The position numbers and the translations under genes were made by a program. Positions 1,196-57,636 of a stretch of DNA of 64,000 bases are shown here, one piece after another. The stretch comes from Myxococcaceae bacterium (GTDB taxonomy: Bacteria; Myxococcota; UBA727; JABDBI01): the NCBI GenBank assembly GCA_016000045.1, contig JAECQY010000001.1, positions 169,194 to 233,193 on the forward strand, written 5' to 3'. The stretch's first letter is position 1; every line of letters starts with the position of its first letter. Below the pieces are notes generated by a model. The model searched no databases. It had not been told where the DNA came from and saw nothing but the letters and a program-made list of their open reading frames with translations.

Positions 1196-2656
1196 ATGAA
1201 ATTATTTCTTTGGGCAATAGTCGGAGTGAGTTGTTTGGGTAGGGCTGAGCCGAAGCCTAATTTTCCCTGTGATTTGCCAATGCTTCGATTCTCCCTTTCA
1301 TCTGTTTCGGAGCAAGCACTCCCAGAACCTGCGATTCCAGCGGTGGTGACCACGGTGACGCAAAATGGGGGTGCTGTATCTTCCGTTGTGAGCGCGATCA
1401 CGGCGGTTGGCCCGACTCAAGTTGCTCAGACGGCTCGCTCTGGATTAAGCCTGGATTTACTCGCTTGCGACGACGGCCTGCCCATGCAGGAAGGTCCGCT
1501 GGATTGGGCAGATAGCCCCACCCAGCTATCTTTGGGTGAGGGTTCGCTTCAGTACCATACTGGAGCTGTTCTGGGGAACTGGGTTTTGATGGTGGGAGCG
1601 GTGGGCGTATGGAGTGGGGTTGCTTACAAGCTAGGTCCTGAGGCGGCGCAGTTTCCCGGGAGTTTGATACTGCCGGCCCTGCTTTTGATAGTTCCCACCG
1701 TGACTTCTTCGTTCACGCTGGCGCGAGATGGGGACAAGTCTTTACAAACAGCCGGCTCGGTCTCGATCCTGGTATCGCTGGCCAGCATCGCTGCGGTTGG
1801 CGTCAAGGTATGCCCTCGGTTTTTTAAGGCGCGCTGGGAAGACTATGAGCATGAATGGGTCGATTTATCCAACGCGCAAAGAGGTTGGGTGGCACGGTAC
1901 GGCGAGTTGTTTGATACCTACGCCGCGGGCCGACAAGGCTATATCGTGGTTGAATTGTTGACTTCGGTAGGCGTGGGGACTCTTAAATCGTATCAGATTT
2001 TAGAACAAAACTGCCAGGAGTTGTTATGGGCAGGCATGGTTGTTTACGATGCTTATGCCATTTCGCAATTGGCTTTGCGTCCCAATCGCAATCGTCATGC
2101 TCAAATTTTTTACAGCGCCATCGCGACACTTCAAGCGACAGCCCTGACCTTGCAAGCCATTGTTTCCGTCTCCGCTTCCGAAGAAACACAAAGCAAAGTG
2201 AAAACCGTGACTCAATCGGTCGTGGTGGTGACAGAGTATATGATGATGATTAAGACCTTGTTTGACATGGGTTTGCGCGTCAAGAGTTGGTACGATCGAT
2301 ACTACCGGCTCCATTCGGTTTCACTTCCGAAGCAGTCTGCTGGGTTGTCCACCCCGCAGCAAAATACGCCGTTGGAGGAGATGCTATCGGTTGCTTTCGT
2401 ACCGCCTTCGCAAGATACGTTGGTGGGTGAAATGCTACCCCTTGCTTGTGTACCGCTTTCGCTGGACTCCTTGGAGCCTATTGTTCCAGAGGCTTTGTCT
2501 CCGAGCGCATCGGTGTCGGGCGAAGAAAATTTGAAAGCGACTTTAGTCAGCGACTTTGGTTTCTTGGTCGAACAGAGCTCTTCAGTGGCTCCTGTGCCCA
2601 AAAGTTTAAATGAGGTCATTGCCGAACTGATGCAACAGGAGAGTGATCTTGAATAA
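1196..2656 (+). CDS. Hypothetical membrane/secreted protein with N-terminal signal peptide and TM segments; Pro/Ser-rich C-terminus containing a ~45-bp internal tandem duplication
   Basis: Long ORF with signal-like start MKLFLWAIVGVSCLG. Hydrophobic segments are present. No family recognised. Its end overlaps the start of the downstream DUF1566 gene. Confidence 0.4.
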   Translation: MKLFLWAIVGVSCLGRAEPKPNFPCDLPMLRFSLSSVSEQALPEPAIPAVVTTVTQNGGAVSSVVSAITAVGPTQVAQTARSGLSLDLLACDDGLPMQEGPLDWADSPTQLSLGEGSLQYHTGAVLGNWVLMVGAVGVWSGVAYKLGPEAAQFPGSLILPALLLIVPTVTSSFTLARDGDKSLQTAGSVSILVSLASIAAVGVKVCPRFFKARWEDYEHEWVDLSNAQRGWVARYGELFDTYAAGRQGYIVVELLTSVGVGTLKSYQILEQNCQELLWAGMVVYDAYAISQLALRPNRNRHAQIFYSAIATLQATALTLQAIVSVSASEETQSKVKTVTQSVVVVTEYMMMIKTLFDMGLRVKSWYDRYYRLHSVSLPKQSAGLSTPQQNTPLEEMLSVAFVPPSQDTLVGEMLPLACVPLSLDSLEPIVPEALSPSASVSGEENLKATLVSDFGFLVEQSSSVAPVPKSLNEVIAELMQQESDLE

Positions 2657-4046
2657 ACAATGGCTGTTTTGTTTGTTGTGGTTGTCCCGTTTTGGGTTGG
2701 CTGGATATTTCAATGTGAGCGAAGTGCAGGACTCCATGGCGAATGAAGCGCTTTTTCAGCTGATTTCGAATCAGACCTGGACTGTGAACCAACAACAAGC
2801 ATTGATGTCGACGGGTCTTCGCGCTCTATTTCAATCGGTTTCGCCGCAAATCAAGTCGATGCCCGATTACACCGGGCAGTTTGTCGCAAATTGTTCGATT
2901 TTTCTGAATCTGCGCATCGAAGGAGTCGCTTGTGACGTGACGTCGGTCTCGACAGCGATGAAGCCGAGCGGTTATGATTTGAACTCGGCCCTTCGCTTGC
3001 CTCTGGAATACGCGACGCAGATCACACAAAGCGACATCATCTTGGTCAATCTTTACGCGGATTGGAGAGGTAAGACGACGGCTTACTCGGAGCAATATAC
3101 GCTTGGTCCATTTGCTCGAATGCGAACTTGTACGTCAACGCTCAGCGTGACGGATTCACCCGAAACCCCAAGCGGTTTGCTGAGTTCGAGTGAGAGCCTC
3201 GAAGAGTCTCAAACAGCCGCCCCGAGTGTGTCCAAACCCTTCAGTCTTAGTCCCAATGTTCTGGTTTCGGATTCTCACAGCATGAGTTCTACGAGTTCTG
3301 GCAGTAGTGCGTCGGTATCACTTTTGGTTTCTTCAAGCGCGAGTTCATCCGGCTGGTTCAGCGAGTCCAAAAGCCTGACCGAAGCCTTATCACTCAGCCA
3401 GAGTTCAAGTATTCAGGTTTCGGACTCTCGCAGCATGAGTTCTACGAGTTCTGGCAGCAGTGTATCAGCATCGCTTTGGGTTTCTTCAAGCGCGAGTTCG
3501 TCGGGTTGGTTCAGCGAGTCTCAAAGCTTGAGCGAAGCCTTATCACCGAGCCAAAGCTTCAGCAAAATCCTTTCGGGGACTTGTAGTCCGAGTGTGTGGG
3601 GCAGTTGCTTGGGCAATTCTACGGGTTTGGCTTATATTTGGTCTGGTAGTGCCATTTATTCAAACCCAACCAATCAAGCATCGCGTTATACGACCCCTGC
3701 GTCCGGGGTTGTAGGAGATAGTTTAACCGGTTTGCAGTGGGAGCAAGCCGCAAGTAGTAGCACGATGACTTGGAGTGCAGCAGGGACCTATTGTGCGGGC
3801 CGTACGACGGGTGGATTGAGCGGCTGGCGTTTGCCAAACGTGGATGAGCTTCAAACTTTAGTGGACTACACCACCTCCAGCCCAAGTATTAACTCGGCCG
3901 CATTTCCCAGTACACCGAGTAACTATTTTTGGACCTCGACCCTCTACCAACCGAACCCAACTTCCGCGTGGCTCGTCTATTTCTTTCGTGGCGACGTCGG
4001 CTTCAGTGATATGAGCAATAATGGCTTTGTCCGTTGCGCGCGTTGA
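2643..4046 (+). CDS. Secreted DUF1566 (Lcl C-terminal domain, C-type-lectin-like fold) protein with Ser-rich linker; candidate DGR variable protein 1
   Basis: C-terminal domain carries the WRLP..EL motif and the ...FWTST...VRCAR terminus typical of DUF1566. An N-terminal module is shared with the ORFs at 52139 and 54905. The gene lies 27 bp upstream of a DGR-type RT. Confidence 0.7.
   Translation: MILNKQWLFCLLWLSRFGLAGYFNVSEVQDSMANEALFQLISNQTWTVNQQQALMSTGLRALFQSVSPQIKSMPDYTGQFVANCSIFLNLRIEGVACDVTSVSTAMKPSGYDLNSALRLPLEYATQITQSDIILVNLYADWRGKTTAYSEQYTLGPFARMRTCTSTLSVTDSPETPSGLLSSSESLEESQTAAPSVSKPFSLSPNVLVSDSHSMSSTSSGSSASVSLLVSSSASSSGWFSESKSLTEALSLSQSSSIQVSDSRSMSSTSSGSSVSASLWVSSSASSSGWFSESQSLSEALSPSQSFSKILSGTCSPSVWGSCLGNSTGLAYIWSGSAIYSNPTNQASRYTTPASGVVGDSLTGLQWEQAASSSTMTWSAAGTYCAGRTTGGLSGWRLPNVDELQTLVDYTTSSPSINSAAFPSTPSNYFWTSTLYQPNPTSAWLVYFFRGDVGFSDMSNNGFVRCAR
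3264..3570 (+). repeat. Tandem duplication, 2 x 153 bp (51 aa), encoding a Ser-rich linker inside the DUF1566 gene
   Basis: Two near-identical units start with gtttcggaytctcrcagcatgagttctacgagttctggcag. In protein they read SMSSTSSGSS...SSSGWFSES. Confidence 0.75.
3921..4046 (+). other. Candidate DGR variable region VR-A (3' end of the DUF1566 gene)
   Basis: Compared with the paralogous segment 5951-6076, differences fall in codon positions 1-2 with the third base kept in 15 of 18 differing codons. Upstream of the block, differences between the two genes are ordinary synonymous drift. Confidence 0.55.
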
Positions 4047-4073
4047 GGATGGGAGAATGAACAGGATGGGACT

Positions 4074-5621
4074 GTGAAAAAAGGTTGGCCAACTTGGGAA
4101 AGCGTCGATCGAGCTGCGGCTGCTTGCGCCAAGCGCAAGCGAAGCAGACCCGATGCGATTGTTTTTCGGGCCCGCTACACAGAAGAGGTGCTGGACTTGT
4201 GCCAGCGCATTCGATCGGGAGAATACCGGCCCTCCTCGGGGACGGTTTTCGTGACCGATCGCCCAAAGACTCGTGAAATACACGCCTCTCATTATCGAGA
4301 TCGAGTGGTTCACCACCTGCTCCATGACCTGATTGAACCGCACTTTGAACAATCGTTTATTAAAGATTCGTACGCTTGTCGTAAAGGCAAAGGTTCTCAT
4401 GCTGCGGTAGAAGCCTTGCAAAAACACATGCAGCGAGCGACCTGTTATGGCAAAATACGTGCTTATGCCCTGCATCTCGATATTAGAAGTTTTTTCTTCT
4501 CCATTCATAAACCCACCTTGCTGGCTATTTTGGAGTCGAAGCAATGGTTTCGTGAGCAGGCGGAATTGCGGCATTTGACCACTTTGGTGATCAATCACCC
4601 CACTGCGCTGCATGCGAAGCCCTTGGGGCCACCAAGCTCGTTTGAACGAATTCCTCCGTTGAAGCGGCTTGGAGCTTTGGGGGAGGATCGAGGACTCCCC
4701 ATCGGCAATCTGACCAGCCAGTTGTTTGCGAATATCTACTTGGATGTCTTGGACCAGATGATCAAGCGTACTTTAGGGGCTCAATATTACGTCCGGTATT
4801 CAGATGATCTGGTCTTGTTGCACCGCGATGCGGATCAGCTCGCGAGCTGGAAGCAACAAATCATCGAGTTTTTGCAGCAAAGGCTAAAACTGGAGACGCA
4901 TGAGAAAGCGCCAATTCATCCGGTGAGCGAAGGTGTCGATTTTGTCGGGTATGTCATTCGTCCTGCTTACAAATTGTGCCGTGCACGCGTGATTCGGCAC
5001 GCTCACCAACGTATTACCGAGCTCGAAAAACCGCTACACCCTGAAGAACGAGAAGGTTATCAGTTCTGGCGAGTACGTCACAAGGACATCGAGGCTTTGC
5101 GTGCTTGTTGGGCAAGTTATGCGGGTCATTTGAAACATGCCAGTGCTTATCGAGTGGCTCAAAAGTTGCTCAAGCGGCACCCTATCTCTCAATTCTATTT
5201 GCGCTTTGAGATTGCGAAGCATGGAATTTCTGTGGCTCGGCGATTTGCTTTGCCTAAGATTGAGTCTTGTTGGAATCACCAAATCCATTCGTTGCATCAG
5301 AGCGTCTCGAAACCAGCGCTCCGATCGGCAGAGGGTTCTGCGGTGTTGTTGGTTCAAGTGGGTCGTTATGCCGAGTGTCCTTTGCAGAAGGATGCAGAGC
5401 GTTTGGAACTTCGTCGGGGCTTACCGTGGCGTCGCTTGCCTGAGATCATCGACCGAGCGGTTCAAAAGGGTCTGAAAGTGGCAGTGGCTGTTGAGTTTAA
5501 AAAATGCACAGGGCGTATTAGAGCTCGTTATTTGGCGTACTGGGTAGAACCCGTGGCGCGGCCGGTACTGCTTTCTGAAGGTTCTCCCAAGGCTGTGCAG
5601 TTGGAATTCGGGTTTTCATGA
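4074..5621 (+). CDS. Reverse transcriptase, diversity-generating retroelement (DGR) type
   Basis: RT motifs are present in order: RPKTREI, RDRVVHHLL, YACRKGKGSHAAV, LHLDIRSFF, LPIGNLTSQLFANIYLD (the IGxxxSQ substitution typical of DGR RTs), YVRYSDDLVLL and GVDFVGYVI. There is a ~200-aa C-terminal extension. The stop overlaps the next start (ATGA). Confidence 0.85.
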   Translation: MKKGWPTWESVDRAAAACAKRKRSRPDAIVFRARYTEEVLDLCQRIRSGEYRPSSGTVFVTDRPKTREIHASHYRDRVVHHLLHDLIEPHFEQSFIKDSYACRKGKGSHAAVEALQKHMQRATCYGKIRAYALHLDIRSFFFSIHKPTLLAILESKQWFREQAELRHLTTLVINHPTALHAKPLGPPSSFERIPPLKRLGALGEDRGLPIGNLTSQLFANIYLDVLDQMIKRTLGAQYYVRYSDDLVLLHRDADQLASWKQQIIEFLQQRLKLETHEKAPIHPVSEGVDFVGYVIRPAYKLCRARVIRHAHQRITELEKPLHPEEREGYQFWRVRHKDIEALRACWASYAGHLKHASAYRVAQKLLKRHPISQFYLRFEIAKHGISVARRFALPKIESCWNHQIHSLHQSVSKPALRSAEGSAVLLVQVGRYAECPLQKDAERLELRRGLPWRRLPEIIDRAVQKGLKVAVAVEFKKCTGRIRARYLAYWVEPVARPVLLSEGSPKAVQLEFGFS

Positions 5622-6076
5622 AATTTGCACTAGGTTGCCGAATCGCTTTACTCTTGAATATTGGCTTGCTCGCTTGGCCCTTGCTGGCCATTTGTCGTTA
5701 TACCAATGAAAATGGAGCAGCTCTGACCCCGAGTGATCAGACCGTTCGAGACAGCGTGACAGGGCTAGTCTGGCAAAGAACTCAAGCTGCTTCGACCATG
5801 TCTCAAACGTCTGCAGCCAGTTACTGCGCGTCTTTGAATCTCAATGGCTTTTCATTCCGTTTACCGACGGTTCGTGAATTGTCCAGCCTCGTGGACTTCA
5901 ATACCTCCAGTCCCAGCATTGACTCAACGGCTTTTCCGGGAACCTCTTCTAACTATTTTTGGACCTCGACTACTTACCAACCGATCCCAACTTACGCGTG
6001 GGTCGTCGATTTCTATGGTGGCTTCGTCGACTTCAATGCTATGGGCGGTGATAACTCTGTCCGTTGCGCGCGCTGA
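5618..6076 (+). CDS. Small secreted/lipoprotein-like protein consisting of a single DUF1566 domain; candidate DGR variable protein 2
   Basis: Signal peptide MKFALGCRIALLLNIGLLAWPLLAIC, then a DUF1566 domain (FRLPTVRELSSL...FWTST...VRCAR). The start is translationally coupled to the RT stop. Confidence 0.65.
   Translation: MKFALGCRIALLLNIGLLAWPLLAICRYTNENGAALTPSDQTVRDSVTGLVWQRTQAASTMSQTSAASYCASLNLNGFSFRLPTVRELSSLVDFNTSSPSIDSTAFPGTSSNYFWTSTTYQPIPTYAWVVDFYGGFVDFNAMGGDNSVRCAR
5951..6076 (+). other. Candidate DGR variable region VR-B
   Basis: See VR-A. It shares the invariant flanks aactatttttggacctcgac and gtccgttgcgcgcgYtgaggatggga. Confidence 0.5.
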
Positions 6077-6185: not shown

Positions 6186-7142
6186 TTAAGGCAATTGAGC
6201 CGGGTCAATTAATCCAGCTTCGAGCTGCTCAATTTGCTCTCGCGGTAACTCGGTGGCGGTTGCGATAACAGACTTATCGAGCCCCAACTTTAAGAGTTTC
6301 ACCGCTGTTTCTACCTTGGCCTCTGCTTTGCCTTTCTCCAATCCGATAGCTTTGCCTCTTTCGAGTCCGACGGCCTCTCCTTCTGCTTGCCCCTGCGCCC
6401 GTCCTTTTGCTTCAGCGCAGAGATAGTAGTCTTGTTCTGAGACGCTTTGTTTGAGGTAGCGCCAATACTCGTTGCGTTCGGCATCGGTCATCTTGAGGAC
6501 TTGAAGGCGTTCAGCCACTTTGTCCATGCCTTTGGACTGAAAGTCTGCTCGGATTTGTTCGTTTTTGGCCATGTAAAGCCACTCATCGATTTCGCTTTGC
6601 ACTTCATCGTTAAATTTTGGAATGCAAATGAAAAAATATTCTGGAAACACATTGTAGATATCCAAGTTTTTCGAAGCGCGAGTGGACAGATGCAGCGATA
6701 CCGGGTTTTGGGTGTCTATTTCATGAATAATCGTTTGCCCAAAGGCCAAGGCGTGGTTCATCTGAGGGACTTCAAAATACAACAAGCTGATGTGAAAGAC
6801 TTTCTTAATCTGGGTAAAATCTTGACCTAACTCGAGACTGTCGATGATTCTGCGGGAAGTGTTAAAACAGGCTTTATGAGCAAAGTGGGTGGTATAAGAA
6901 CGTTCAATCTCAACCATGTATTTGACACCATTGGCGTCTTCTACCACCAAGTCTGCGATGCTTCGTTTTTGATTTTTGGCTTCTTTCTGGCTTTCTGGAT
7001 CGATTAAGGCCTTAATCTTAACGGGTGGGTAACCCTCGGTGGCTAAAAGAGCGGATAAGAAACTTTCAATAATGTCATAATCGGCCTGGTTTTTGAGCAG
7101 GTACTTAATGGCATAATCGAAACTGACTAAGGGCTTCTCCAT
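6186..7142 (-). CDS. Rpn/PDDEXK_2-family PD-(D/E)XK nuclease (recombination-promoting nuclease / putative transposase family)
   Basis: Motif DLVVEDANGVKYMVEIE fits the nuclease core. The C-terminal charged repeat region (AEAKGRAQGQAEGEA...) is typical of this family. Confidence 0.55.
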   Translation of the reverse strand: MEKPLVSFDYAIKYLLKNQADYDIIESFLSALLATEGYPPVKIKALIDPESQKEAKNQKRSIADLVVEDANGVKYMVEIERSYTTHFAHKACFNTSRRIIDSLELGQDFTQIKKVFHISLLYFEVPQMNHALAFGQTIIHEIDTQNPVSLHLSTRASKNLDIYNVFPEYFFICIPKFNDEVQSEIDEWLYMAKNEQIRADFQSKGMDKVAERLQVLKMTDAERNEYWRYLKQSVSEQDYYLCAEAKGRAQGQAEGEAVGLERGKAIGLEKGKAEAKVETAVKLLKLGLDKSVIATATELPREQIEQLEAGLIDPAQLP

Positions 7143-24558: not shown

Positions 24559-26661
24559 TCACAGATCGGCATTTTTCCTGCTTTCAGAGCCGCACAATGA
24601 AAAAGAAATTGCCCTCATAGAAATGTATGGCATATCCAATGGCTTAAAATGAATTTGAGAGATTAATGGATGATTCTGGCAGGCATTGAGTGTGACATAA
24701 GATTCGGGATTGTAACGCAAATACTTTTCAAACTGAATCAGATTCGAAAACTTTTCTGGCTTCGAAATATCAACACTATCGGTCTGGGTGACACAGTGAA
24801 TGATGATCCCGCCTGTCAGCCCAGCCACCGTAGCGATTAACTTCGAGTAGGCCAGCATAAATGGGCTTAACTTTTCCTTATTCCATTGAAGGATTCCTTC
24901 GAATACAGCCACTGCAGCGGCTGCGATGACCGTCTTGCCCGCTACATTCACGGTGTCCATCGACGGAATCGAGAAACAAGAGGGCTGCATCGAATCAATT
25001 CGCAATCTTTTGCTGTTCCCGGAACGACCCTGGCCGCCTAAGAATTCAAAGTCATCTCTTCCAAGGTTTTCCCGTGCAAGGAGAGCTTCTTGCTCAGGGA
25101 AACGTTTGGCTACCAGATCGTAGACGGCTTTGTTTTTGGCAAGGCTAGCAATATGGAGCCAGTTAAAGTTCCAACGGCCGTCAAATTTGGGAGCGTCTAT
25201 TTTCAATAGAAGCGATTGTAATTCATCCACTTTCTCTTCAGCGATCAAGGAAAAAACGAGCTCAATTTCTCGGATGATGCGTTCGCTGCCGAGATTTTTG
25301 GATTCCAGCCAGCGTCTGAAAAAGTTTGTGAAGGCCGTATGCACTTCCCGGTTTGGAATTTTCAGTGCCGGTAATTGGGTTTCGGAAGGATCTGGAATCT
25401 CGGATGAGGTTTCGAAGGTCAGATACCCTGTGTAAAATAGCAATGACCAGAGTGCTTCGTCCGATTGTTCGATATCCGCTAAGAGTAAATTTGTTCGAAT
25501 TGGCTTAAAGACCGCGTTGCCGGCTCGAAGTGTTTCCAGTTCATTTTGAATGGATTCGCTCAAAATAGCTCGATCAATCATATCGGTACTTCCGGTGTCT
25601 ACCCAGTAAGGCTCTAGCCTGCCCTCGGCCAAAAAGTTGGCAATCGACCAAGGGTTGTAAAGTTTTACACGATTGATTTGATAGCCATTGTACCACTCTC
25701 TGACTTCGTCCAAACGATTCTCTAAACCAGCTTGTTTGAGCAGCTTCTGCGTTTCCGGTTCTGTAAATCCGTAATGAGTGGCATAGCGTCCATTAATAAG
25801 ATTGGCTTCGACGAAGTTGTTGATACCCGAGAAAAGATTTGCTTTGGCAAAACGGAGAATGCCTGTGAAAACCCCTTGCTCCAGGTGAGGGTTATCTTTT
25901 AGCGCTGGGCCTAGAATATCTCTCATGAACTCCAGGGCTTCTTCCGCGTAGTGCTTGTGGAACGCATGGTTGATCGGCGTATCGTACTCATCCACCAAAA
26001 TGATGACCTTCTTTCCCGTGTGAGCATGAAGAAACTGGCTCAGAACCAGCAGAGAGTCCGATGCGTCGATGGAGCGAATGATATTTTGGTCGTAAACCCC
26101 GGTCGCGCACTGGCTGAATGTTTTGAGCAAAGCGGCATACTGTTCTGCTCGCAGCCCGTGATTGTTAAGAGCCGGACTTTCCATTAAGTAAGAGTGCCTA
26201 GCGTATTCGTGATACAAGGTTCGAATCAGCTTGTACTTCATTTGAAAGAAATCTTCTCCGCGGATATCTTTGAGTGTCATGAAGATAACCGGGTATTTTC
26301 CTTGATACTTATCGACAAATGTCAGCTTCGTGCCTGGGACCATCCGTGAGCCAATGGTGAGTTCACTAAACAGTTGCCTGTAAAGATTGGTGGATAAGGC
26401 ATTTCCATTTCGATCCACACCGATTTCAAAGAAATACTTCAGCATGCTCAGGTTGGTTGTTTTTCCCCATCTTCGAGGACGTGTGATCAGAGTCACCAGT
26501 TGGTTTGACTTGATCAAATCTTCGATGAATAGGGTTTTATCGATTGGAGCGACACTTCCGGAGTGCAGGGCGATAAAGTCGCCGCTGCCAGTAACCGGCG
26601 CTTCGGCCAATGTGGTGAGTCCAAAAAACGCGAAAATGAGTGAACACAGTAGCTTTGTCAT
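24559..26661 (-). CDS. AAA-ATPase-like family protein with C-terminal extension; predicted signal peptide
   Basis: Motifs [11 protein letters not shown]...[21 protein letters not shown] and [13 protein letters not shown]. Signal peptide [21 protein letters not shown]. There is a ~200-aa C-terminal region of unknown function. Confidence 0.55.
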
Positions 26662-26769
26662 ACAGTTATCCAGCGATTCGATAGTGATTGCGCTCGATAT
26701 AGCCTGCAAGCACGGATAGCACAAGAAGATCATATTGCCAGATCCCTTAAATATTCTATAAACGGTCCA

Positions 26770-52138: not shown

Positions 52139-54502
52139 TTGCGAATGGCGATTAAGAAAAATCTAAAAACCCAAGCACGGTGCTTTAGGCAAGCAAAGCT
52201 GCTGGTATTCTTAATTTGGGGACAAACCGCTGTTGCTGCCTGGCTTAATCAAAGCCAGGTAACGAATGCCGTGGCGAATCAGGCACTAACCCAGCTTGTT
52301 TCGAACCAGACATTGCCTGCCGCCCAGCAAAAACAATGGTTCTCGACCGGATTGAAGGCCTTGTTTGCCGAGCTAACTCCGGCGATTCAAGCGATGCCAG
52401 ATTATACGGGCCAGTTTGTAGCCAATTGTTCCATTTTCATGAACACTCACATCGAGCAGGTTTTGTGCGAGATCAACTCCACGACTGCTTTGGTGAGACC
52501 CGAGAGTTGCGGACAGAGTTCCTTACTTCCTTTGGAATATGAGCATCAAATTACCGAAAGCGCGATTTTGCTGGTGAGTTTTTACGCTGATTGGACGCGT
52601 AAGACGTCGTTATCCTCCGAATCTTATGCCGTTCGTTTGTTCGATCGGATGCCAACGTGCACCGCGTCTGCGAGCGTTTCAGAGACAGGGCCAATACTCA
52701 GCCAAACCTTGAGCCCTACTGAGTCTACCTCTTTGAATTTTACGATAAGCCCAAGTGCTCCTGTGGTTTGGAACCCCGAGTGGGCAAATTGGCAGATAAC
52801 GACCGGTGTCTATCAAGACAACGCCAATCAAACGGGCCGCTACCTTGAATCGGTTCCAGGAGTTATCACGGATCAAATGACGGGTTTGCAGTGGCAAAAA
52901 GTAGGGAGTGCGCCTGCGGGTAATTGGACGGCTGCGCAGGCCTATTGCGCTAATTTGTTTGAGTCTGGGTTTGGGGATTGGCGTTTGCCCGCGCACGTGG
53001 AACTTCAGACTTTGGTGGATTATACGATGGATTGCGCTGGTCCCAGCGTGGATCTGAATTTTTTCCCAGGCGCTCAAACCAGCAGTTACTATTGGTCCTC
53101 GGACGCTTTACAGGGTTACCCTGGCAGTGCTTGGTGGGTGAGCTACGGTAGTAGTGGTGCCTATTACGCAGGCCTCGTTTGCAGCCAGGGTTATGGTGCT
53201 TGTTCTTCAGTGCCTGCGAGCGGCTTTGCCCGTTGTGTGCGACCCTCGTTGGCAGATCGAGAGATAGATCGTTACACCTTTAATAGCACGCAGGTTCTGG
53301 ACACCGTAACGGGCTTGATTTGGCAGCGAACGGTTTCTGGAACTTATAACTGGGGTGCAGCGCAGGCTTATTGTGCGGGTTTGAATCTGGACGGTTTGAT
53401 CTGGCGTCTTCCGAATGTTAAAGAGTTATCGACGCTTCTGGATGTTCGCATAGCATCTCCGGGTCCGACGATCAATACGACGGCTTTTCCGAGTACACCT
53501 CAGGCTGGGTTTTGGACATCAACGCCTTGTTCGTGTGCGTCTTCATCCGTCGCGTGGCTGGTCGATTTCATCTATGGTTCTGTGTCCTACACTGGCATGG
53601 GCACTTTTGACTATGTTCGTTGTGTGCGCTCTCCTCAGGTTTACAATCCCGAGTGGGCGAATTGGCAAGTGACAACGGGCGTCTATCGAGACAACGCTAA
53701 TCAAACGGGCCGCTACCTTGAATCGGTTCCAGGAGTTATCACGGATCAAATGACGGGTTTGCAGTGGCAGAAAGTAGTGAGTGCGCCTGCTGGCAATTGG
53801 ACGGCTGCGCAAGCCTATTGTGCTAATTTGTTTGAGTCTGGGTTTGGAGACTGGCGCTTGCCCACGCACGTAGAACTTCAGACTTTGGTGGATTATACGA
53901 TCAGTTGCACTGGTCCCAGCGTGGATCAGGATTTTTTCCCAGGTACTCAAACCAGCAGTTACTATTGGTCCTCCGACGCTTTGCAGGGTTACCCTGGAAG
54001 TGCTTGGTGGGTGAGTTACGGCACCGGTGCCTATTACGCGGGCCTTGTTTGCAGCCAGGGCTATGGCGTCGCTTGTCCTTCGGTGCCCGCGAGCGGTTTT
54101 GCCCGTTGTGTGCGACCTTCGTCGGCAGAACGAGAGGAGGATCGTTATGCCTTCAACAGCACCCAGGTGCTGGACACCGTGACGGGCTTAATTTGGCAAC
54201 GGATGGTTTCCGGAACTTACAGCTGGAGTGCAGCGCAGGCTTATTGTACGGGTTTAAATCTGGACGGTTTGAGCTGGCGCCTTCCGAATGTCAAAGAGCT
54301 ATCGACGCTTCTGGATGTTCGCATGGCATCTCCGGGTCCGACGATCAATACGACGGCTTTTCCGAGTACACCGCAGGGCGGCTTTTGGACATCAACGCTT
54401 TATACGTGTTCCTCATCCAACGCCTGGGCGGTCTTTTTCGATAATGGCTACGTCGCCTTCAATGATATGAGCTCTTCTTACTGTGTCCGTTGCGCGCGTT
54501 GA
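52139..54502 (+). CDS. Large secreted protein with shared N-terminal module and four DUF1566 domains in two ~874-bp tandem units; candidate multi-VR DGR target
   Basis: Four WRLP..EL motifs. Units 52763-53636 and 53637-54502 are near-identical except at the tips of domains 2 and 4 (FWTST...VRCVR/VRCAR). Confidence 0.65.
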   Translation: MRMAIKKNLKTQARCFRQAKLLVFLIWGQTAVAAWLNQSQVTNAVANQALTQLVSNQTLPAAQQKQWFSTGLKALFAELTPAIQAMPDYTGQFVANCSIFMNTHIEQVLCEINSTTALVRPESCGQSSLLPLEYEHQITESAILLVSFYADWTRKTSLSSESYAVRLFDRMPTCTASASVSETGPILSQTLSPTESTSLNFTISPSAPVVWNPEWANWQITTGVYQDNANQTGRYLESVPGVITDQMTGLQWQKVGSAPAGNWTAAQAYCANLFESGFGDWRLPAHVELQTLVDYTMDCAGPSVDLNFFPGAQTSSYYWSSDALQGYPGSAWWVSYGSSGAYYAGLVCSQGYGACSSVPASGFARCVRPSLADREIDRYTFNSTQVLDTVTGLIWQRTVSGTYNWGAAQAYCAGLNLDGLIWRLPNVKELSTLLDVRIASPGPTINTTAFPSTPQAGFWTSTPCSCASSSVAWLVDFIYGSVSYTGMGTFDYVRCVRSPQVYNPEWANWQVTTGVYRDNANQTGRYLESVPGVITDQMTGLQWQKVVSAPAGNWTAAQAYCANLFESGFGDWRLPTHVELQTLVDYTISCTGPSVDQDFFPGTQTSSYYWSSDALQGYPGSAWWVSYGTGAYYAGLVCSQGYGVACPSVPASGFARCVRPSSAEREEDRYAFNSTQVLDTVTGLIWQRMVSGTYSWSAAQAYCTGLNLDGLSWRLPNVKELSTLLDVRMASPGPTINTTAFPSTPQGGFWTSTLYTCSSSNAWAVFFDNGYVAFNDMSSSYCVRCAR

Positions 54503-54540
54503 GGATGGGATGTTGATCCTTTGACTTTTGACCTTTTAAT

Positions 54541-54607
54541 AAAGAAAATGGAAGGCAGTAGGGCCCGAAATAGGCACTGGCTCGTTAGCTTCTGGGAAAG
54601 ATACGTT
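54541..54607. repeat. Intergenic repeat family B, copy 1 (~67 nt), downstream of a DUF1566 gene
   Basis: aaagaaaaYggaaggcagYagggYYcgaaataggcWctg...agcttSTgggaaagatacgtt. Second copy at 57570-57636; partial match at 6106-6125. Confidence 0.55.
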
Positions 54608-54807
54608 GCATGAAGTTCTTGAGGAAGACATCGCTGCTGTAGATGTCAAGTCGTTTCTTGGTAAGCGCTGGTCCTTGATGGGAGCGCAATTTCGTGCGAG
54701 TCATAGGATGAAATAGTGGTTGTCGCGTTTAGGGAGAGCACTTAGAGTGTATCGAGAGAATTGCTTCCGATTTGAGCGTTCGTTTGTATCCTTGCCTGCG
54801 TCGGGGT

Positions 54808-54817
54808 GGGGGGGGGG
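54808..54817. repeat. Homopolymeric G10 tract (preceded by GGGGT) ~87 bp upstream of DUF1566 gene 54905
   Basis: Direct read: tcggggtgggggggggg. Candidate slipped-strand phase-variation site in a promoter/5' UTR. Confidence 0.5.
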
Positions 54818-54904
54818 TAAATATAGTCATTTTAACTGTTTCATATTTGAATTTAATAATATATACTTGATTCAACTTCGCCCCCATGAGAAGGGGTGTG
54901 AACG

Positions 54905-57445
54905 ATGAATCGGTATTTGTGCTCCTGGCTGTTATTGCTGTCTTTACCGGTTCAAGCGGGTTTTGTGCTTCGAGAAGGCTTCTCCGAAGTTCTGAGTCAA
55001 CAGTTTTCAAATCTGACGCAGCTTAAGAATCAAACGAGCTCTTTATCCAAAGAGCTTGTGACACAAAATGCCATGAGGGGATTATGGTCTCTCATTGGGC
55101 CTCATCTTCAAGCCTTACCGGGTTGTTGTAAGAAGCCTTTTAGCTCAAATTGCTCTGTGTTTTTCGATGCCGAAATTGATGAGGTTGTGTGTGATGCGCA
55201 ATTTGAAGAGGTTCAAGCAATTTCGACATCTTGCGAAGCCGAGCAACGGTTTCCAGTGGGTTATTTGGCGCAGTTACACAAGAGCAATATTCTCCAGACG
55301 CGCATTGTCGTGGGTCTGGCGCCTGTGCAACATCCGCAGGTGATGTATTGGTTGTATGATAAATTGCCACCGACGCTTTCACAATCTGTGACACAATCAA
55401 ATTCCATGAGTGGCCGCAACACTCAAACCGGCACAGATTCCGCAAGCCCGATGAATAGCACCACGGATTCTGTTGGCCCAACGAGTAGTTTTACAGAGAG
55501 TTTATTGTCGAGCAGGAGCGTGTCGTTTAGCTCAACTGCCACTGAATCATTGACTCCAAGCCATTCGGTTGCAACAGAATCGGCTAATCTGTCGCATTCT
55601 TTGAGTGGGAGCACTGTTCCGTGCACGAGCGAGAGCTTGTCTCATTCTCAAACTTTGAGTTCTACCCAGTACCCATCGTTCAGTTCAAGCCTGAGTCCCA
55701 GTGCTCCCGTGGTTTGGAACCCTGAGTGGGCGGATTGGCAAGTGACAACGGGTGTTTATCGAGATAATGCCAATCAAACGGGCCGCTATTTTGAATCCGT
55801 TCCGGGGGTTATCACGGATCAGATGACGGGTTTGCAGTGGCAAAAGGTAGGGAGTGCATCTGCGGGCAATTGGATTGCTGCCCAGGCCTATTGCACAGAT
55901 TTGTTTGAGTCTGGGTTTGGAGACTGGCGTTTGCCCACGCACGTGGAACTTCAGACCTTGGTGGATTATACGATCAGTTGCGCTGGGCCCAGTGTGGATC
56001 TGGGTTTTTTCCCAGGCACGCAAACCAGCAGTTACTATTGGTCCTCCGACGCTTTGCAGGGTTACCCTGGGAGTGCTTGGTGGGTAAGTTACGGCAGCGG
56101 TGCTTATTACGCGGGTCTCGTTTGCAGTCAGGGCTATAGCGGTTGTTCTTCAGCGCCTGCGAGCGGCTTTGCCCGTTGTGTGCGATCCTCATCGGCGGTT
56201 CGAGAGGTGAATCGTTATGCCTTTAATAGCACCCAGGTACTGGACACGGTGACGGGCTTGATTTGGCAACGAACGGTTTCCGGAACTTACAACTGGGGTG
56301 CGGCGCAAGCTTATTGTGCGGGTTTGAATCTGGATGGTTTGAGCTGGCGCCTTCCGAATGTCAAAGAATTATCGACGCTTCTGGATGTTCGTGTGGCATA
56401 CCCGGGTCCAACGATCAATACGACGGTTTTTCCGAGTACACCGCAGAGCGGCTTTTGGACCTCAACGCCTTATTCGTGTGTGTCTTCATCTAACGCGTGG
56501 TTGGTTGGTTTTGACTGTGGTTACGTCATCTTCAATGGTTTGAGCCCTGCTGGCTATGTTCGTTGTGTGCGCTCTCCTCAGGTTTACAATCCCGAGTGGG
56601 CAAATTGGCAAGTGACAACCGGTGTCTATCAAGACAGCGCCAATCAAACGGGCCGCTACCTTGAATCGGTTCCAGGAGTTATCACGGATCAAATGACGGG
56701 TTTGCAGTGGCAAAAAGTAGAAAGTGCGCCTGCAGGCAATTGGACGGCTGCGCAGGCTTATTGTGCTAATTTGTTTGAGTCTGGGTTTGGAGACTGGCGT
56801 TTGCCCACGCACGTGGAACTTCAGACCTTGGCGGATTATACGATCAGTTGCGCTGGGCCGAGTGTGGATCCGGACTTTTTCCCAGGCACTCAAACCAGCA
56901 GTTACTATTGGTCCTCAGACGCTTTGCAGGGTTACCCTGGCAGTGCCTGGTGGGTGAGTTATGGGAGCGGTGCCTATTACGCAGGCCTCGTTTGCAGCCA
57001 GGGTTATGGTGGTTGTACTTCAGTGCCTGCGAGCGGCTTTACGCGTTGTGTGCGACCCTCGTCGGCGGTTCGAGAGGTAGATCGTTATACCTTTAATAGC
57101 ACACAAGTTCTGGACACCGTAACGGGCTTGATCTGGCAACGAACGGTTTCAGGGAATTACAACTGGGGTGCAGCGCAAGCTTATTGTGCGGGTTTAAACC
57201 TCGACGGTTTGAGCTGGCGTCTTCCCAATGTCAAAGAATTGTCAACGCTTCTGGATGTTCACGTGGCATACCCGGGTCCGACTATCAACACGACGGTTTT
57301 TCCAGGCACGCCTCAGGCCTGGTTTTGGACATCAACGCCTTATTCGTGCGCGTCCCCGTCCGGTGCGTGGGGCGTGGATTTCGGTAATGGCGGCGTCTTC
57401 ACGGTTAGCATCAGCAATACTTACTATGTTCGGTGCGTGCGTTGA
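54905..57445 (+). CDS. Large secreted protein with Ser/Thr-rich linker and four DUF1566 domains in two ~867-bp tandem units; candidate multi-VR DGR target
   Basis: Signal peptide MNRYLCSWLLLLSLPVQAG. Units about 55718-56584 and 56585-57445. Hypervariable tips on domains 2 and 4. Confidence 0.65.
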   Translation: MNRYLCSWLLLLSLPVQAGFVLREGFSEVLSQQFSNLTQLKNQTSSLSKELVTQNAMRGLWSLIGPHLQALPGCCKKPFSSNCSVFFDAEIDEVVCDAQFEEVQAISTSCEAEQRFPVGYLAQLHKSNILQTRIVVGLAPVQHPQVMYWLYDKLPPTLSQSVTQSNSMSGRNTQTGTDSASPMNSTTDSVGPTSSFTESLLSSRSVSFSSTATESLTPSHSVATESANLSHSLSGSTVPCTSESLSHSQTLSSTQYPSFSSSLSPSAPVVWNPEWADWQVTTGVYRDNANQTGRYFESVPGVITDQMTGLQWQKVGSASAGNWIAAQAYCTDLFESGFGDWRLPTHVELQTLVDYTISCAGPSVDLGFFPGTQTSSYYWSSDALQGYPGSAWWVSYGSGAYYAGLVCSQGYSGCSSAPASGFARCVRSSSAVREVNRYAFNSTQVLDTVTGLIWQRTVSGTYNWGAAQAYCAGLNLDGLSWRLPNVKELSTLLDVRVAYPGPTINTTVFPSTPQSGFWTSTPYSCVSSSNAWLVGFDCGYVIFNGLSPAGYVRCVRSPQVYNPEWANWQVTTGVYQDSANQTGRYLESVPGVITDQMTGLQWQKVESAPAGNWTAAQAYCANLFESGFGDWRLPTHVELQTLADYTISCAGPSVDPDFFPGTQTSSYYWSSDALQGYPGSAWWVSYGSGAYYAGLVCSQGYGGCTSVPASGFTRCVRPSSAVREVDRYTFNSTQVLDTVTGLIWQRTVSGNYNWGAAQAYCAGLNLDGLSWRLPNVKELSTLLDVHVAYPGPTINTTVFPGTPQAWFWTSTPYSCASPSGAWGVDFGNGGVFTVSISNTYYVRCVR

Positions 57446-57476
57446 AGACGGGATTTTTACTTTTTATTTTTATAAA

Positions 57477-57570
57477 ATTGGCAATAAGCTCCAAAGTTTA
57501 CGGAAGTAATTGAGAACCCAATTCATGACAGCGCGTCTAAACGCCATAATTTATTTTGACGGGAACCGAA
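57477..57570. repeat. Intergenic repeat family A, copy 2
   Basis: See 12089-12180. Confidence 0.6.
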
Positions 57571-57636
57571 AAGAAAACGGAAGGCAGCAGGGTTCGAAAT
57601 AGGCTCTGAGGCGGCAGCTTGTGGGAAAGATACGTT
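57570..57636. repeat. Intergenic repeat family B, copy 2
   Basis: See 54541-54607. Confidence 0.55.

Follow-up and report, generated by a model that had tools for sequence, protein, structure and literature searches.

DGR targets that do not adjoin their cassette and that carry DUF1566 lectin-like tips are already known, and therefore the locus described here does not alter what DGRs are. The Legionella pneumophila DGR target LdtA is of the DUF1566 or 'CLec2' type, category d (Wu et al., 2018, PMC5758913). Non-adjacent targets were found for 45 of 372 DGRs (PMC5758913), and the Treponema denticola DGR has multiple remote targets. Thiohalocapsa PB-PSB1 has a multi-DGR genome, in which the DGR7 locus contains an RT and no TR (bioRxiv 10.1101/2023.09.22.558884). 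IMH, hairpin and homology are the requirements described for a VR (PMC3240598), and the rule that a hairpin/cruciform lies downstream of the IMH was shown for phage-type DGRs (Guo et al., 2011, PMC3240598).

Here, a 64-kb stretch of DNA (the window; all coordinates are on its + strand) was analyzed, which contains the neighbouring paralogs P1 and P2. It is considered likely that the C-terminal tips of P1 and P2 are wired to two DGRs, of which DGR1 is probably frozen, and that the internal tips of both proteins are fossil VRs. As in LdtA, the VR is located at the C-terminal end of a DUF1566-type lectin-like domain of a putative secreted or surface protein, the template codons are of the AAY type and the RT contains the IGNLTSQ motif. 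Unlike in LdtA, a constant CTLD stands in front of the variable domain, tandem duplication of this pair gives four domains per protein, the internal tips are non-templated and the linked DGR1 lacks avd and TR. With the T. denticola DGR the locus shares VRs that are tens of kb or more away from the RT, an ordinary chromosomal context and one TR serving in trans, but here each of the two neighbouring paralogs appears to be wired to a DGR of its own, and one of these DGRs lacks its TR. Several independent DGRs per genome, one RT locus without TR, MITE-like repeats at DGR loci and loci shaped by duplication and rearrangement are likewise found in Thiohalocapsa PB-PSB1; there, however, the VRs of the TR-less locus fit the TR of another DGR and the targets are putative antigen sensors, whereas here TR2 misfits the DGR1 VRs and the targets are putatively secreted multi-CTLD proteins. 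Adenine-specific information transfer from TR to VR, and VR and TR 3' ends with distinct IMH-type sequences (here TGAAGACGGG in VRs and TGAAGATGGG in TR2), are shared with the DGR of Bordetella phage BPP-1 (Mtd; PMC3240598). Unlike in BPP-1, the system is chromosomal, the lectin domain is DUF1566-type and not Mtd-type CLec, and no GC-rich hairpin/cruciform could be detected downstream of the VRs: DNA folds of the 70-nt flanks were no better than those of shuffled sequences (z between -0.9 and +1.5, with -0.9 to +0.2 at the VRs). The hairpin requirement of phage-type DGRs may not be universal.

P1 (52139-54502) is an ORF of 787 aa, identified by four Pfam Lcl_C domains and homology of its N-terminal module; the NCBI annotation (MBH2005939.1) places its start at 52145. 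Its tandem paralog P2 (54905-57445) is an ORF of 846 aa, also with four Lcl_C domains, and the P2 protein is identical in two MAGs (MBH1989488.1 and MBH2005940.1). P1 consists of a signal peptide, an N-terminal module, a short Ser/Thr linker and two units of one constant and one variable CTLD each; P2 contains a longer Ser/Thr-rich linker followed by two such units. The sequence-only reading, which had described two units of ∼870 bp per ORF with two DUF1566 domains each, was correct in this respect, since Pfam Lcl_C/DUF1566 was found four times in P1 and four times in P2, and the units could be delimited to 52766-53638 (P1u1), 53639-54499 (P1u2), 55712-56581 (P2u1) and 56582-57442 (P2u2). Conservation of the first domain in every unit, together with its Tyr/Ser/Gly-rich tip, was confirmed (dN/dS 0.08-0.17), and the tip of the second domain differs in all four copies, with an amino acid identity of 38-59% in the tips versus 89-90% in the body; the tip peptides quoted in that reading were also correct. 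The RT-adjacent target A (2643-4046) has the same kind of N-terminal module, to which that of P1 is 49% identical (E about 1e-45) and that of P2 only 28%.

A C-type-lectin fold, as had been predicted, is supported by an AF2 model of one unit (pLDDT 84, pTM 0.85), which in Foldseek searches resembled tandem CTLD receptors, the C-terminal domain of Legionella Lcl (8q4e) and Bdellovibrio Bd2740 (8oks). The Lcl domain and the Bd2740 fibre-tip domain each gave a single-domain structural match to each half-unit (probability 0.99-1.0, target TM-score 0.58-0.64, sequence identity 10-20%); a PDB sequence search with one unit as query gave zero matches. Both Pfam Lcl_C and the AF2 model thus place the VRs in a domain of C-type-lectin fold. 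P1 and P2 are putative secreted or surface ligand-binding proteins, encoded by tandem genes that arose from an ancient duplication. Their parts (signal peptide, N-terminal module, Ser/Thr linker and a unit of constant and variable CTLD) are those of the DGR targets of this lineage, with the CTLD unit duplicated in tandem in both.

The units had been called near-identical, which does not hold: the nucleotide identity of the unit bodies is 87.5-89.8% with a dS of 0.27-0.70, and the longest exact match between them measures 83 nt. With such an identity, a dS of 0.3-0.7 and a dN/dS of ∼0.1 (0.08-0.17), the ∼870-bp units are old paralogs and not an artefact. The suspicion that the repeats were produced by the assembly can be dismissed, and collapse of the 870-bp units was ruled out as well, because they diverge by 10-12%, have no exact run longer than 83 nt in common and agree with fragments from a sister MAG, whose assembly breaks inside the P1 repeated units.

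The differing tip codons had also been suggested to keep their third base. Across the four tips this is not the case, as third positions vary in 18 of 32 tip codons versus 107 of 251 body codons, and tip dS (0.41-0.85) is no lower than body dS; the third base is preserved only when each C-terminal tip is compared with its own TR lineage. The variation across the four tips would be expected if no DGR acted on the distal tips and, after the duplications, ordinary point mutations had accumulated in four binding-site loops while selection was diversifying or relaxed. The tip dN/dS of 0.56-0.84, which is below 1, fits this as well, and so do the two internal tips, which match no TR. As an explanation for the locus, this is possible but somewhat doubtful, and it is refuted at both C-terminal tips by the comparisons with templates and sister VRs.

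The C-terminal tip of P2 (P2u2, 57350-57448, with the VR at 57350-57442) matches TR2, which is located at locus L009 on another, 54-kb contig attributed to the same MAG. Over 99 nt, P2u2 and TR2 differ at 16 adenine sites and at one of 68 non-A sites, so that 16 of 17 mismatches are at template adenines. P2u2 is the sole site in the window that fits TR2, the next best one having 16 non-A mismatches, and ten other TR-bearing loci used as controls each gave at least nine non-A mismatches. The VR-type flank TGAAGACGGG is found in P2u2 and in the own VR of DGR2, versus TGAAGATGGGAGAA in TR2. This adenine-specific pairing, which is observed directly, is not what divergence by point mutation predicts, and the idea that P2u2 is a decayed VR was overturned by the TR2 match. 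DGR2 is complete, with the order Avd2-TR2-RT2-small target. Its protein MBH2006910.1 falls in the same accession block as this MAG, and the run from which its Logan contig derives (SRR9332771) is the same as well. That DGR2 and P2 belong to one genome is probable, on the grounds of MAG binning, accession block, common sample and the TR2/P2u2 match. The last tip of P2 would then have been written from TR2 and, judged by sequence, is putatively still open to diversification by DGR2.

DGR1 is located at 2.6-6.1 kb of the window. Its target A (2643-4046) is composed of the N-terminal module, a Ser-rich linker and one DUF1566 domain, with VR_A at about 3941-4043. RT1 (4074-5621), a DGR-type reverse transcriptase, is an intact ORF of 515 aa with an RVT_1 domain and the motifs LPIGNLTSQ and YSDD. 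It is followed by target B (5618-6076), a 152-aa protein with a single DUF1566 domain, which overlaps the RT stop by 4 nt and contains VR_B at about 5971-6073. RT1 is of the DGR clade and scores below the cut-offs of group II intron, retron and DRT models. Its identity to the RTs of the related loci L002, L008 and L009 is 62, 65 and 50%, respectively; L002 and L009 contain adenine-specific TR/VR pairs, and in L008 the TR only is found. The arrangement of an RT followed by a small target also occurs in L005, L007 and L009. VR_A and VR_B differ at 17 positions of the 78-nt core, 16 of which are codon positions 1-2, and neither can be the template for the other, as the mismatches are not adenine-specific.

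The C-terminal tip of P1 (P1u2, 54431-54516) agrees with these two sister VRs. The VR at 54431-54499 is followed by a stop codon and an IMH-like 3' end, which is shared with VR_B up to 54516, and flank homology continues to about 54545. No mismatches were present over 52 non-A sites of the TR1 lineage, defined as those invariant among VR_A, VR_B and P1u2. In the tip patch, third codon positions are identical to VR_A in 23 of 23 codons, versus 30 of 93 upstream (Fisher p=5.5e-10). The exact 14-mer GTCCGTTGCGCGCG is common to P1u2 and the RT-adjacent VRs, VR_B and P1u2 end in GGATGGGATGTTGA versus the TR-type GGATGGGAGAATGA, and a degenerate VR pattern matched only VR_A, VR_B and the P1u2 site within the window. 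The hypervariable (HV) codons of this lineage coincide with AAY codons in the TRs of relatives. Divergence by point mutation is refuted here too, as all 52 invariant non-A sites are identical to VR_A/VR_B, yet 16-17 of the 26 HV position-1/2 sites differ. TR1 was never seen, and therefore the assignment of P1u2 rests on its concordance with VR_A and VR_B; this concordance is observed directly and strongly suggests that P1u2 is a VR of the TR1 lineage. The last tip of P1 would thus have been written by TR1, the same template as for VR_A and VR_B, over a distance of about 49 kb.

Plain gene conversion from target B, without retrohoming, could also have placed this patch in P1, and the P1u2 flank beyond the IMH-like end, which is 80% identical to the VR_B flank, would fit, because a cDNA would not bring that flank along. 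Such conversion would however have copied the variable codons too, whereas P1u2 and VR_B differ at 16 of 26 HV position-1/2 sites and at only 2 of 39 other sites, which is the mark of separate mutagenic homing events that used a single template. The similarity of the flanks is what ordinary divergence between paralogs would leave, and probably goes back to the common ancestor of all targets. Gene conversion is therefore regarded as highly improbable.

An IMH-type 3' element distinct from the IMH* of the TR is, by sequence, present at P2u2, the own VR of DGR2, VR_B and P1u2, and within P1 and P2 only the C-terminal variable domain retains the cis features of a DGR VR, namely stop codon, IMH-like 3' end and flank. 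The proposal of DGR diversification at up to four extra sites can thus be upheld for the two C-terminal tips, via two different DGRs, and not for the two internal ones. A simple picture, in which all four are served by the RT ∼46 kb away, fails, as P2u2 fits the TR2 of a second DGR and the internal tips fit no TR.

The canonical site of avd and TR in DGR1 is empty. L002 and L008 have the order target-Avd-TR-RT, L005 and L007 the order target-Avd-TR-RT-small target, and bAvd is present in all of the relatives L002 and L004-L009. In the relatives, avd and TR span about 700 bp, at the site of the 27-bp gap between target A and RT1. At the deletion junction (4044-4073), VR_A runs at its end into a 3' flank of the TR type (GGATGGGAGAATGA...GTGAAAAAAG), and the sequence can be aligned with the junctions between TR and RT in L002 and L008. 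For none of the six tips was a TR revealed in the 64-kb window by BLAST or by an ungapped, adenine-forgiving scan of both strands, and searches of the window with 20-mer and 14-mer anchors matched only the VRs. No avd was found in the window by tblastn with the Avd of L002 (best E 1.1). The TR1/avd search covered 64 kb of the 249-kb contig plus fragments of the MAG. TR1 was not found in any fetched relative locus, and the degenerate VR/TR pattern gave no matches in JGI metagenomes. For sequence outside the window, a search with the RT yielded an identical Logan contig of 5.9 kb and nothing else, and RT1 relatives were found in no metagenome contigs and, among genome contigs, only in L002.

An assembler could have jumped from VR_A into the TR 3' flank, as VR and TR are identical over about 26-28 nt at the 3' end and the sister-MAG assembly did break within repeated units of P1. 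However, the junction of the MAG contig recurs in L001, an independent Logan contig (100% identity over 5924 bp), and a shared stretch of 26-28 nt is shorter than typical final k-mers. An avd homolog search also recovered none from this cassette and, for a second cassette, nothing from this MAG, although its word index limited its sensitivity and it missed Avd2, which was later revealed by an RT homolog search. An assembly artefact is therefore very unlikely. Most likely, avd and TR1 were lost when VR_A and TR1 underwent homologous recombination in the 3' ends that they have in common; this would have left VR_A fused to the TR 3' flank, 27 bp before RT1.

As DGR1 has lost avd and TR1, it is probably inactive now, and VR_A, VR_B and the P1u2 tip are probably frozen. 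Of the past or present diversification that had been suggested, P1u2 thus probably represents the past. The intact ORF of RT1 was unexpected and counts against a long-dead DGR1. Its 515 aa with catalytic motifs, and the near absence of drift at non-A sites of VR_A, VR_B and P1u2 (1-2 of 39), would also fit a DGR1 that is still active, with TR1, possibly together with avd, elsewhere in the genome or with Avd2 acting in trans, so that these three VRs would still be diversifying. Such an arrangement has precedents, since a TR-less locus is served by the TR of another DGR in Thiohalocapsa (DGR7/DGR9; bioRxiv 10.1101/2023.09.22.558884) and DGR components work in trans (PMC5758913). Against it, TR1 is absent from the window, all fetched loci and the JGI metagenomes, TR2 does not fit the DGR1 VRs (9-10 non-A mismatches), and VR_A, VR_B, P1u2 and P2 are identical in two MAG assemblies, which are consensus sequences and weakly informative on diversification. 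Continued activity of DGR1 is accordingly considered unlikely, and a frozen DGR1 is preferred. A surviving TR1 would be expected to be of the TTCAATAATGGCAACGTC... type, with adenines at the 13 HV codons.

The internal tips, with 26-codon cores at 53552-53629 (P1u1) and 56495-56572 (P2u1), are hypervariable and continue directly into the next unit (SPQVYNPEW in P1u1). Stop codon, IMH and flank are absent at both. Compared with TR2, the TR1 lineage and ten related TRs, neither tip gave a match: P1u1 has 13 non-A mismatches to TR2 and 10 of 52 to the TR1 lineage, P2u1 has 12 and 8 of 52, respectively, and at least 11 were counted to every other TR. The related RT loci L010-L012 (Logan, other samples) contained no TR for these remaining tips either. 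An AAY footprint is nevertheless visible, as amino acids vary at 12 of 13 AAY-type codons versus 2 of 13 other codons, and 37 of 39 AAY-type (HV) codons remain NNY (p about 9e-8), none of which encodes K, E, Q, M or W. This footprint speaks against point mutation and selection without any DGR, which is otherwise a plausible reading of the internal tips. Divergence at their HV codons exceeded the neutral level (K about 0.95-1.5 vs 0.22-0.46), for which simple decay does not account. The footprint is compatible with past DGR mutagenesis, and the tips could be relics or products of selection. In the history that we infer, the internal tips would descend from a VR via unit duplication, retaining the AAY-codon footprint, and having lost their 3' recognition elements they would now be in ordinary substitution, as fossil VRs that were perhaps refined by selection.

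As one reading, put forward tentatively and thought rather unlikely, unit duplication serves as an archive of DGR-evolved tips, combined with rewiring of paralogs between DGRs. A tip copied to an internal position may escape rewriting because stop codon, IMH and flank are lost, and the new C-terminal copy may keep diversifying. Neighbouring paralogs may also have switched from one DGR to another, to which the P1 tip points, since its 5' segment is common to the TR2 family and its 3' part to the TR1 family. In a radical variant, retrohoming may have diversified the internal tips at their present position, although they lack a terminal IMH. If the archive reading is true, the genome builds a small fixed repertoire of past specificities beside a live hypervariable one, and hypermutation would be linked to the growth of multi-domain adhesin/receptor families in Myxococcota.

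Under the favoured explanation of two DGRs and fossil internal VRs, one 5-kb locus would display three stages that DGR targets can go through: a VR whose cassette is intact (the P2 tip with TR2), a VR orphaned by the loss of avd and TR from its cassette, apparently by VR x TR recombination (the P1 tip), and former VRs fixed as internal domains after duplication. Such recombination would be a weakness inherent in elements that carry two nearly identical repeats next to each other. Of the five TR-concordant VRs identified, three would be missed or mis-assigned by DGR finders that rely on the TR, and when a template has been lost, its targets can be traced by concordance between sister VRs.

Downstream of P1, a conserved element of 67 nt was identified at 54541-54607, and a second copy with 84% identity is located downstream of P2 at 57570-57636. 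VR_B is also followed by a sequence similar to this element.

The tandem ORFs P1 (52139-54502; 787 aa) and P2 (54905-57445; 846 aa), read as two units each with two DUF1566 domains per unit, were borne out, and four Pfam Lcl_C/DUF1566 domains were found in each protein. Direct-repeat analysis and protein alignment placed the first and second units (u1 and u2) at 52766-53638 and 53639-54499 in P1 and at 55712-56581 and 56582-57442 in P2. As the sequence-only reading had described, each unit pairs two domains: the first bears a conserved Tyr/Ser/Gly-rich insertion, and the last ~35 residues of the second (the tip) differ in all four copies. Its description of the units as near-identical was overstated: nucleotide identity is 87.5-89.8% in the unit bodies and 59-71% in the tips, dS of the bodies is 0.27-0.70 with dN/dS of 0.08-0.17, and the longest exact run common to any two units is 83 nt. 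These comparisons indicate that the units are old paralogs under purifying selection. An assembly artefact, considered as their possible origin, is ruled out by the body divergence, dS and the short exact runs, and P1 was also recovered from a sister MAG, as two fragments whose sequence matches except for a single amino acid, C462Y. This residue (NCBI numbering; window ~53525-53527, just 5' of the P1u1 tip core) is Cys (TGT) in the window and Tyr in the sister MAG and in the other three units. The proposed N-terminal module in common with target A of the RT-adjacent element was also found (49% identity for P1, 28% for P2). Downstream of P1 (54541-54607) and P2 (57570-57636) lies a 67-nt conserved element with 84% identity, and a sequence resembling it also lies behind VR_B. 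It may represent an ancestral 3' element of these target genes or their terminator region.

The suggestion that the third base is kept across the four tips failed. Third positions vary in 18 of 32 tip codons versus 107 of 251 body codons, and tip dS (0.41-0.85) is not reduced. As third positions are as variable in the tips as in the bodies, the four tips are not undergoing homogenisation against one template.

DGR1, the RT-adjacent element at the window start, comprises target A (2643-4046), RT1 (4074-5621; LPIGNLTSQ and YSDD motifs) and target B (5618-6076), which overlaps the RT1 stop. The C-terminal tracts of targets A and B, the variable regions VR_A and VR_B, show 17 differences within a core of 78 nt. 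Codon positions 1-2 account for 16 of these, which looks like the pattern of two VRs derived from one AAY-rich template; that one templates the other was rejected on comparison of the two tracts. No template repeat (TR) could be identified on either strand of the 64-kb window, TR1 (the template of DGR1) was never observed, and avd is absent from the window. Among related DGR loci, the order is target-Avd-TR-RT in L002 (RT 62% identical to RT1; TR-to-VR mismatches at adenines in 21/23 and 23/26 cases) and target-Avd-TR-RT-small target in L005 and L007 (RT 45%), and in L008 (RT 65%) a VR flank is seen together with Avd, TR and RT. The gap between the target A stop and RT1 in the window is only 27 bp, and its bases (GGATGGGAGAATGA...GTGAAAAAAG) align with the TR-to-RT junction of L002 and L008. 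The VR-type flank present on VR_B and P1u2 is GGATGGGATGTTGA, followed by a T-rich segment. At 4044-4073, VR_A runs directly into a 3' flank of TR type, with the RT1 ORF still intact. An independent Logan contig carries the same VR_A/RT1 junction. The simplest reading of this layout would be a deletion of avd and template by recombination of VR_A with TR1 inside their identical ~26-nt 3' ends. Since the RT1 ORF is intact and VR_A, VR_B and P1u2 are nearly without drift, such a deletion would be recent, or the template persists elsewhere.

VR_A and VR_B both end in the 14-mer GTCCGTTGCGCGCG, which has one further copy in the window, at 54485-54498 in P1u2. Third codon positions of P1u2 and VR_A agree at 23/23 sites from 54431 to the stop and at 30/93 upstream in the same domain (Fisher p=5.5e-10). 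P1u2 has no mismatches at the 52 set-invariant non-A sites. Relative to VR_A and VR_B, it differs at 16-17 of the 26 position-1/2 sites of 13 codons, and at these 13 codons the L002 and L008 TRs read AAY (or ANY). A degenerate pattern in which only the non-variable bases were fixed matched exactly VR_A, VR_B and P1u2 in the window and nothing in shuffles, and the P1u2 and VR_B flanks are 80% identical. This strongly suggests that the P1 C-terminal tip is a member of the DGR1 lineage. Plain gene conversion cannot account for the patch, because it cannot give identity at constant sites and, at the same time, saturate the AAY sites. Independent events of mutagenic homing with a single template can yield this pattern.

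A search for RT homologs identified P0153 (MBH2006910.1), 50% identical to RT1, from the same NCBI accession block as the window proteins (MBH2005893-5940) and also present in the same-run Logan assembly (SRR9332771). Its locus L009 (1-2706; NCBI 54-kb contig), attributed to the same MAG, is a complete cassette, DGR2, with Avd2 (61-456), TR2 (~615-725), RT2 (731-2239) and a small DUF1566 target (2217-2702). The sole window match of TR2 (99 nt) is 57350-57448, where 1 of 68 non-A sites and 16 A sites are mismatched; the runner-up has 16 non-A mismatches. P2u2 and the VR of L009 have the VR-type flank TGAAGACGGG in common, and its TR2 counterpart is TGAAGATGGG. When the six window tips were compared with every fetched TR-bearing locus as a control, P2u2/TR2 alone stood out, all other pairs having at least 9 non-A mismatches. 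The P2 C-terminal tip is thus templated by TR2 of the second DGR. A decayed VR at P2u2 was rejected, as all but one of the mismatches in the TR2 pairing lie at adenines. None of the VRs is followed by a detectable hairpin.

The proposed DGR diversification at all four tips hence found support at P1u2 (DGR1 lineage) and P2u2 (DGR2), but not at the internal tips P1u1 (core 53552-53629) and P2u1 (56495-56572), which do not fit TR2 or the TR1 lineage (12-13 and 8-10/52 non-A mismatches, respectively). Both continue straight into the next unit (…VRCVR-SPQ-VYNPEW), with no stop, IMH or flank at their 3' ends; they thereby lack two of the three features that a recipient VR needs (PMC3240598). In the three tips not fitting TR1 (P1u1, P2u1 and P2u2), amino-acid variation was found at 12/13 AAY-type versus 2/13 other codons (p=2e-4). 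The AAY-type codons are still NNY in 37/39 cases (background 0.56; p about 9e-8), and K, E, Q, M and W are encoded by none of the 39. At positions 1 and 2 they have diverged (K about 0.95-1.5) more than the neutral four-fold sites of the bodies (0.22-0.46). By this codon pattern, the internal tips appear to carry the footprint of AAY mutagenesis, and they are best read as ex-VRs moved inward by unit duplication. Their later divergence may have come from homing at an early stage, recombination between the units, a third TR so far unseen, or positive selection.

The predicted C-type-lectin fold was supported by an AF2 model of one unit (pLDDT 84, pTM 0.85). Both domains match the tandem C-type-lectin receptors Endo180, DEC205 and mannose receptor, with single-domain matches to the Legionella Lcl C-terminal domain (8q4e) and the Bdellovibrio Bd2740 fibre-tip domain (8oks). 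P1 and P2 have hydrophobic, signal-peptide-like N-termini followed by Ser/Thr-rich linkers, and weak adhesin-type NCBIfam matches. Together this suggests that they are ligand-binding proteins, either secreted or at the surface.

The 46 kb between RT1 and P1 are core chromosome by family matches and sequence (ValRS, ribosomal protein S1, PNPase, polyphosphate kinase, MnmA), so P1 and P2 are chromosomal non-adjacent targets and not prophage genes. Among surveyed DGRs, 14% have DUF1566 'CLec2' VRs, for example Legionella LdtA, and non-adjacent targets occur in 45/372 DGRs (PMC5758913); Thiohalocapsa PB-PSB1 has a multi-DGR genome including a TR-less DGR locus (bioRxiv 10.1101/2023.09.22.558884). 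The P1/P2 system is therefore of a known type. Unusual here are adjacent paralogs wired to different DGRs, an RT1 and three VRs orphaned by what is most simply read as a VR x TR deletion, and non-templated ex-VRs as internal domains of P1 and P2.

Directly upstream of ORF 1061-2656 and DGR1 lies a 148-nt inverted repeat (601-748/941-1088; 96% complementary, 192-nt spacer), single-copy in the window, inside which the Logan contig ends. It could be MITE-like or an invertible segment; in Thiohalocapsa, MITE-like arrays are reported at the DGR loci. ORF 1061-2656 encodes a 531-aa multi-pass membrane protein without Pfam or NCBIfam match that adjoins the DGR targets, as does a multi-pass membrane protein in L002 (2815-4326), and it is a possible conserved accessory gene in this lineage of DGRs. 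PD-(D/E)XK-family genes on both sides of DGR1 (a PDDEXK_9 fragment and a PDDEXK_2 transposase-like gene; 58-504, 6186-7142) and an AAA-ATPase_like gene further on (24559-26733) hint that the surroundings are mobile or prone to rearrangement. The Ser-rich linker of target A contains a 153-bp tandem duplication (3241-3393/3394-3546; 84% identity). In L002, a Dit-like phage tail gene lies upstream, and in VR2 (5921-6044) a TGG-to-TGA change at a non-adenine site places an in-frame stop that cuts the target ORF short at 5953.
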